Shown piece after piece: positions 8,887 to 9,835 of a stretch of 64,000 nucleotides of DNA. Every line of letters begins with the position of its first letter. The first letter of the stretch is position 1. Origin of the DNA: Eledone cirrhosa (taxonomy: Eukaryota); NCBI GenBank assembly GCA_964016885.1, contig OZ024742.1, forward strand, positions 177,630,001-177,694,000, written 5' to 3'. The translations under genes and the position numbers were made by a program. The notes under the pieces were generated by a model. That model saw nothing but the letters and a program-made list of their open reading frames with translations, did not search any database and had not been told where the DNA came from.

Positions 8887-8892
<6 letters not shown>

Positions 8893-9835
8893 TTTACACA
8901 TACACCAATTAAACAAAGTCACAGGTATATATGTCTTTTGGCAACTTTTCACGATGTGGCACAATGGAGTATTAATAAATTAAAATTATCAGTGCAAAAT
9001 ACTATAGAGTAAAGCATGTCCAGAGAATTATTTGATAATATGTAGACATCATCTCTCCTCCCAATCACCATAATTAACCACACAAAATATGAATTAGGCC
9101 AGGCTATAAGAATAAAAGGCATCTATGAAGAAATAGTAAATAAATACGCCAAGCGGCGTCTTCGCGCGCAACCGCTATAGAATATTTACCCAACATTTCA
9201 ACAGCACGTGGAAATTAATTAAATATACGGTCAACCATACATAATTAGGTAAAAATTAATGTTAGAAATGGTTATATACATACCAGGATTAAATCACTAA
9301 ATCCCCATCTAAGATGCCTTTTATTCTTATAGCCTGGTCTAATTGATTTTTTGTGTGGTTAATTATGCTGATTGGGAGTATATATATATTATCAAATAAT
9401 TCTCTGGATATGCTTTACTCTATAGTATTTTGCTCTGATAATTTATTAATTCTCCATTGAGCCACATCGTGAAAAGTTGACAAAACACATATATACCTGT
9501 GACTTTGTTTAATTGGTGTATGTGTAAATATTTATATTTAATAATCTCCCATAAGGTTGAGATAAAAATTTGGCAGTATTGGGCTGCGCTTTCTAGCAAC
9601 CAACCCCCTCGCCGTAAGCAACCAATCACACCCTTCCTGACTTGACCACTGCCACGTCACAGTTCTCAACCATTTTGAATTCGTGTTTGGCGGCGGCCAC
9701 TTCGGAAAATAATATGTCCTAGCGAGTTTATCCCCTGAAGAGCACTAAACTCGAGTATTAACCTTAATAAGGTATCTCAAAAGTGACCGAAACCCTAGGG
9801 TCGGGATTTAATTGATTTAATCCTGGTATGTATAT
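8887..9835 (+). mobile_element. Fold-back HHR-bearing Penelope/retrozyme-like element
   Basis: Inverted arms ~8887-9124 and ~9312-9536; HHR at 9730-9807; 9274-9305 is an inverted copy of 9803-9835. Confidence 0.8.
9730..9807 (+). ncRNA. Type I hammerhead ribozyme
   Basis: atccc-CTGAAGA-gcact...agtgacc-GAAA-ccctaggg-TC-gggat; GUC cleavage triplet; palindromic ACCCTAGGGT. Confidence 0.8.

Follow-up and report, generated by a model that had tools for sequence, protein, structure and literature searches.

A head-to-head hammerhead repeat insertion in Eledone cirrhosa with one arm ending at the predicted ribozyme cut, a breakpoint that recurs across its family

The stretch analyzed here (the window) comprises 64,000 nt of the Eledone cirrhosa genome (assembly GCA_964016885.1, contig OZ024742.1, positions 177,630,001 to 177,694,000 of the forward strand), and at around 9 kb it carries an insertion made of two oppositely oriented copies of a non-coding repeat with a predicted hammerhead ribozyme (Table 1). 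We number the 688-nt unit of this repeat from the first base 3' of the predicted cut (position 1). On this scale the insertion runs from 425 down to 1 in the inverted arm, passes through a six-base insert and continues from 182 to 688 in the sense arm, followed by 1-32 of the next unit; the left arm ends exactly at the predicted cut and the right arm reads across it. The original prediction had pointed out that the sequence from 9803 reappears inverted at 9274-9305 and ends at the cut nucleotide, and this was borne out: 9803-9835 matched 9305-9274 in 31 of 33 columns (E 8.9e-9, 1.7-kb self-comparison), the match terminating at 9305, the partner of 9803, which is the first base 3' of the GUC triplet (9800-9802), and the base past the match end being a C in the window where a G would be expected. 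Self-comparison also gave a longer inverted repeat pairing 9312-9540 with 9124-8881 (88% over 244 columns). The fold-back proposed beside the inverted segment survives in part. The 6 nt between the arms (9306-9311) exactly match unit positions 181-186 in reverse complement and represent a small templated fold-back, but the inverted arm itself should not be taken for a fold-back of 9803-9835. It spans 425 nt as a second arm whose outer end is a fixed site of its own; the two arms overlap because the right one crosses the intact site into the next unit. Similarly, joining the arms does give a permuted monomer of the proposed length of about 670 nt (about 672 nt in the window copy), but the family unit is 688 nt, about 15 nt having been deleted from the right arm of the window copy.

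Table 1. Features of the insertion and its left flank (window coordinates).
Feature	Position	Strand	Basis or remark
(TA)n-rich microsatellite, left flank, likely insertion target	8700..8886	no strand	sequence; TA-abutting ends across the family
Inverted arm, unit 1-425, inner end at first base after predicted cut	8881..9305	-	outer end at fixed 425 site; TA boundary ambiguous by a few nt
Templated fold-back insert, 6 nt, joining the arms	9306..9311	no strand	reverse complement of unit 181-186
Sense arm, unit 182-688 across intact ribozyme site, plus 1-32 of next unit	9312..9835	+	mapped on unit
Predicted type I hammerhead	9730..9807	+	motif; no Rfam match
Predicted cleavage bond, intact in sense arm	9802..9803	+	left-arm mirror is the 9305/9306 junction

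A query with the right arm retrieved 3,971 candidate places in the 3.0-Gb genome, 40 of which were scored. The unit was fixed at 688 nt by a 2.5-unit tandem array (L007) of 687/688-nt units, and 48 unit-to-unit overlaps were present among the family copies. The longest stop-free stretch in the 2.5-mer was 92 aa, with no long reading frame, and GC content over 8001-10000 of the window was 0.32. Family ends mapped to internal positions of the unit: among 286 usable segment 3' ends (from 293 mapped segments, omitting those cut by an edge or shorter than 40 nt), 143 coincided with position 308, 53 with 425 and 13 with 428, and no terminal direct repeat was seen. TA runs adjoined 141 of the 150 ends in the 308 class and 69 of the 80 in the 425 class, compared with 7 of the 56 other ends. 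Arms were joined head-to-head in 76 pairs vs a single tail-to-tail pair; 47 of the 76 combined a 308 end with a 425 end, none combined 308 with 308 or 425 with 425, and 29, the window among them, carried at least one altered end. The overlapping arms of one insertion were a median of 96.2% alike, compared with 93.2% for unrelated copies (38 pairs with at least 100 shared positions). By its sequence, we identify the window insertion as a head-to-head insertion of a non-coding type I hammerhead repeat of the animal non-LTR retrozyme kind (LTR, long terminal repeat), with Penelope-type ends.

The core of the predicted hammerhead in the window consists of CUGAAGA (9735-9741), GAAA (9789-9792) and GUC (9800-9802), with stem I formed by 9730-9734 and 9803-9807, a palindromic stem III at 9793-9800 and a stem II that has two mismatches. 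Rfam scans of the window and of 9650-9900 returned no match, and the ribozyme is therefore called from its motif and from the way its stems pair in copy after copy. Among 97 family copies, the five stem I pairs were formed at frequencies of 0.91-0.97 and four stem II pairs at 0.95-0.98, the scan pattern pre-selecting part of the 3' strand. A compensated stem II variant occurred in 10 of the 97 copies, and stem III palindromes were of two kinds (39 and 13 copies); a palindromic stem III is a design described for hammerheads acting as dimers (PMC4209133). In a sister family that is 66-75% alike and carries a GUA triplet, stem I differs on both sides from that of the 688-nt family, and the two-arm geometry was present in the copy examined; the pattern did not resolve stem II of this sister family (middle pairs about 0.5). 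The circular fold of one unit was not clearly better than 25 shuffles (z -1.45), and single-sequence folds gave no hammerhead shape. We infer self-cleavage at the predicted bond.

The right outer end of the window insertion lies at 32 instead of the expected 308, and the missing stretch (unit positions 33-308) was not found in the window or in the next 10 kb; this short end is probably the result of later loss. The adjoining right flank (9836-10190) probably belongs to another repeat, which either took the place of the lost end or came after it; the flank contains a 17-bp inverted repeat (9859-9875 with 10032-10048), a zone of very high contig depth (9886-9957) and 43 nt that weakly match three places at 20809-21781. 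Contigs of runs X1-X3, all from one sample, contain the family, and among the pieces listed none spans the window junction, which is evidence in neither direction.

The test that the original prediction had put forward, enrichment of breakpoints at the cleavage nucleotide, came out in its favour: breakpoints piled up there in three family samples and were not random, and the same step was present in the sister family. In the first sample, drawn from the 173 places that hold unit 1-20 exactly by taking the first 100 in coordinate order, 8 copies including the window stopped exactly at the cut and none 1 nt upstream, with one break each at 2 and 3 nt upstream and the next at 19. Leaving out the window, 7 of 99 stopped at the cut where 0.28 would be expected from the upstream background (18,618 nt containing 53 breaks). 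This is a 24.8-fold excess, with a Poisson P of 2.2e-8 that rises to 2.9e-5 when a threefold margin is granted to chance matches, and any other single position held at most two breaks. The second sample, which overlaps the first, took the first 100 of 245 places holding unit 11-30, or 98 without the two rows of the window; here positions 1-10 took 14 of the 98 ends and the 10 nt upstream took 2, compared with 3.1 expected per 10 nt, and 6 ends, from 5 insertions, lay at position 1. The third used no sequence near the site, its probe (unit 243-308) lying 240 nt downstream of the cut. Among the 40 full-length matches of the 42 listed, 13 ended in positions 1-24, such that 13 of the 26 arms reaching position 24 stopped before the cut; 8 of the 21 arms reaching position 7 stopped within 7-1 (P 3e-9), 3 of them exactly at position 1 (P 8e-6). 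Two arms stopped within 9 nt beyond the cut, and none of the 40 ends fell between positions 679 and 437. A pattern excluding the normal TC before the site gave 11 matches, all of them true ends. On a tree of 196 unit copies, 23 rows ended at the site or within 3 nt of it and 21 changes were needed to place them; at least 6 were forced by well-supported branches, and the stops formed a single clade in 0 of 200 bootstrap trees (bootstrap values being rough). The scatter of the stops over the tree points to recurrent events rather than to one source copy. Short fold-backs were also seen at other position-1 junctions (L091 and L093), and the junction of L096 at the cut carries 8 extra G before position 1, possibly an untemplated addition or slippage at the template end.

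The first 19 nt of the sister family gave 1,005 exact matches, of which 22 lacked the normal upstream bases. Sixteen of these 22 broke at the cut, 2 at -1, 1 at -2 and 1 at -13; the other 2 had a mutated stem and continued past the cut. At a control point 17 nt downstream with the same four upstream bases, the matched letters gave 7 of 467, split 3:2:2. The step at the cut departed strongly from uniformity (binomial P 3e-4 to 5e-8, with the null share taken as 0.43 to 0.24), and we regard this replicate as supportive of the cut-site step, without being conclusive.

We consider it probable that the window insertion is a two-armed non-coding hammerhead repeat written by the reverse transcriptase (RT) of a Penelope-like element (PLE), and that its left arm was ended by run-off of the enzyme on an RNA already cut. 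Likewise, the family-wide stops at the cut are likely to record RNA that cut itself in living cells before some of the copies were made. A pile-up this sharp on the scissile bond argues that circles or uncut multimers were not the sole templates. A number of results weigh against this interpretation. The window arms are 94.2% alike, no more than unrelated copies. In the first sample, 92 of 99 copies continued past the cut or broke just upstream of it, and the claim that the hammerhead set the template end in vivo, supported as it is by the pile-up, applies to only part of the insertions; as many copies cross the site, cleaved RNA would be one template and not the sole one. An intact core was found at 110 of 145 crossed junctions, so dead ribozymes do not explain the crossing; with a majority of copies crossing, either cleavage would be partial or circles would dominate. 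Partners that cross the site were found for 2 of 14 arms stopping at the cut vs 14 of 57 others, which is not significantly fewer (P 0.50). A second small cluster of 5' ends lies 57-58 nt upstream of the cut (unit 631-632), inside the ribozyme (4 of 100). Among the first 30 loci, only the window ended at position 1 and one arm at 3, the breakpoints otherwise appearing random; this length-biased set was put aside for the enrichment test because its 531-nt query made every match cross the site. In the sister family, the rate at the cut was 16 of 1,005, a denominator inflated by tandem arrays, compared with 3 of 467 at the control, a 2.5-fold difference that is not significant (Fisher P 0.21) and in which the two patterns sample different subfamily mixes; comparison of the step itself against the control gave P 0.057. 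No pseudo-long terminal repeat (pLTR) common to the unit and an autonomous element was found in 31 loci with a GIY-YIG match (of 150 scored matches and 10,597 candidates). Finally, in vitro cleavage was reported for only 1 of 9 dimers of Xenopus retrozymes (bioRxiv 10.64898/2026.07.22.740005), and in a lizard PLE cleavage was dispensable in vitro and no RNA-seq ends were seen at the site (PMC11167929).

Among the alternatives, the one that survives best, which we hold to be unlikely, is that the RNA was not cut and that RT paused at the folded uncut hammerhead or at a small hairpin (unit 2-20). A pause would fit the shoulder of ends at positions 2-24, the two insertions (L037 and L184) that join through the 5-nt stem of that hairpin, and the minor cluster of ends inside the ribozyme at -57/-58. 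By inference, however, such a pause should map to stem I, at its 3' foot (5-6), or to stem III (-1/-2), whereas the peak lies at 1 with 0 of 100 at -1; the sister family shows a 16:2:1 step, and the empty stretch upstream resembles the end of a template rather than a pause. We give little credence to a 5' wall produced by a transcription start, or by the end of a truncated source copy, coinciding with the ribozyme site. Any fixed RNA 5' end would leave the same footprint in DNA, but here two families of only 66-75% similarity would both have to place it on the scissile bond, the stops do not form one clade, their upstream flanks all differ, and no RNA polymerase III B-box motif was found in either unit. 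That the family pile-up is real while the window junction arose by random truncation or was rearranged later at the DNA level, as the crossing of the site by the other arm, the unremarkable similarity of the arms and the later alteration of the right outer end might suggest, is very improbable given that 0.28 chance stops per 99 copies vs 7 seen would make about 1 in 25 such stops a chance event, that the arm has a normal 425 outer end and that short fold-backs recur at the position-1 junctions of L091 and L093.

If run-off on pre-cut RNA is the right reading, insertion could proceed as follows. A PLE-type enzyme combining RT and endonuclease would nick both strands of a TA target, one strand priming copying at position 308 and the other at 425, and each arm would be extended toward the RNA's 5' end. 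The two complementary DNA ends would then be joined, often via microhomology or a short fold-back (L091, L093, L037, L184 and the window). On a cut linear RNA an arm would end at position 1, or lose a few bases in joining; on an uncut multimer or a circle it would cross the site. With one arm stopped and one crossed, the window would fit a dimer in which the 5' site alone was cleaved, or a pair of RNA molecules. The pile-up of 5' ends on the scissile bond would be indirect in vivo evidence that cut RNA was reverse-transcribed and inserted, and the strict pairing of 308 with 425 yields a precise prediction of how the enzyme primes on the two target strands. More tentatively, and leaning slightly towards doubt, we propose that the insertion junctions of retrozymes mobilized by PLEs are a germ-line fossil record of hammerhead activity, that cut linear RNA may template up to half of new arms, and that the enzyme is an asymmetric pair in which each half always primes at a fixed RNA site different from that of the other, and on one of the two target strands. 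Were this true, breakpoint profiles would measure the in vivo cleavage of any hammerhead family from genome sequence alone.

In L1 twin priming, primers from the two target strands give rise to a head-to-head inversion, whose arms derive from different parts of a single RNA and terminate in poly(A). The arms of the 688-nt family, in contrast, overlap and start at two fixed internal sites. In R2 elements, the template owes its 5' end to cleavage by a ribozyme (Eickbush et al. 2013, PMC3774820; PMC11331408), and R2 and short internally deleted elements (SIDEs) with an HDV-like ribozyme (HDV, hepatitis delta virus) resemble the 688-nt family in that a ribozyme cut would define this end. R2 differs in its class of ribozyme and enzyme, its one fixed ribosomal DNA target, its priming at the RNA 3' end and its single arm, and only part of the 688-nt copies end at the cut.

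PLEs with a GIY-YIG endonuclease share with the family an inverted 5'-truncated arm, a 'tail' at one end, a bias towards AT or (TA)n microsatellites and a hammerhead with a palindromic stem III (Craig et al. 2021, PMC8557442; Frangieh et al. 2024, PMC11167929), the role of the hammerhead in PLEs being called unclear (PMC8557442). The 688-nt unit differs in having no RT or endonuclease frame and in its 'tail' of 117 nt, compared with 30-40 in PLEs. Purified PLE protein used two internal start sites and AT-rich targets and extended both strands (PMC11167929). However, the start sites are split strictly between arms in the 688-nt family (47:0:0), whereas no strand difference was described in vitro, and the family ends pile up at the cut, whereas that report saw none in RNA reads. 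Animal non-LTR retrozymes, like this family, have a non-coding tandem unit with one type I hammerhead each, low GC and a proposed dependence on PLEs (PMC7229834; bioRxiv 10.64898/2026.07.22.740005). At 688 nt the unit exceeds the range of 150-450 bp given by Cervera and de la Pena 2020 (PMC7229834) but lies within that of 51-972 bp given by Li, Clavereau, Pollet (bioRxiv 10.64898/2026.07.22.740005), and a circle-only template model of retrozymes predicts no ends at the cut, whereas this family has them. An analysis of insertion ends is absent from the text of these two reports as far as it was consulted. In the features compared, the 688-nt element agrees with animal non-LTR retrozymes and is not an autonomous PLE. 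The element type is thus already known; for genomic ends enriched at the hammerhead cut in PLEs or retrozymes we found no published report in searches with incomplete coverage of the literature.

The genome (G000) holds many elements that combine RT with GIY-YIG. A candidate intact PLE lies at locus L216 (4309-7122, minus strand), where a 938-aa open frame matches both RT and GIY-YIG. Locus L232 carries a degraded PLE (2310-6774) with a classic inverted 5' arm (2310-2765 mirroring 6319-6774), and a pattern search of the part of it scanned as L209 found no hammerhead. The unit-like matches at GIY-YIG loci turned out not to be pLTRs but separate retrozyme insertions adjoining them. Two sister hammerhead families, each carrying a GUA triplet and sharing 66-75% similarity with the unit, were represented at L229 (1054-2506) and L232 (6767-7994), both copies having inserted into TA runs next to an element with RT and GIY-YIG. 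A satellite-like array of tandem sister-family units, about 30 kb long and with a spacing of ~657-665 nt or multiples thereof, occupies G000:C1:92985992-93015741.
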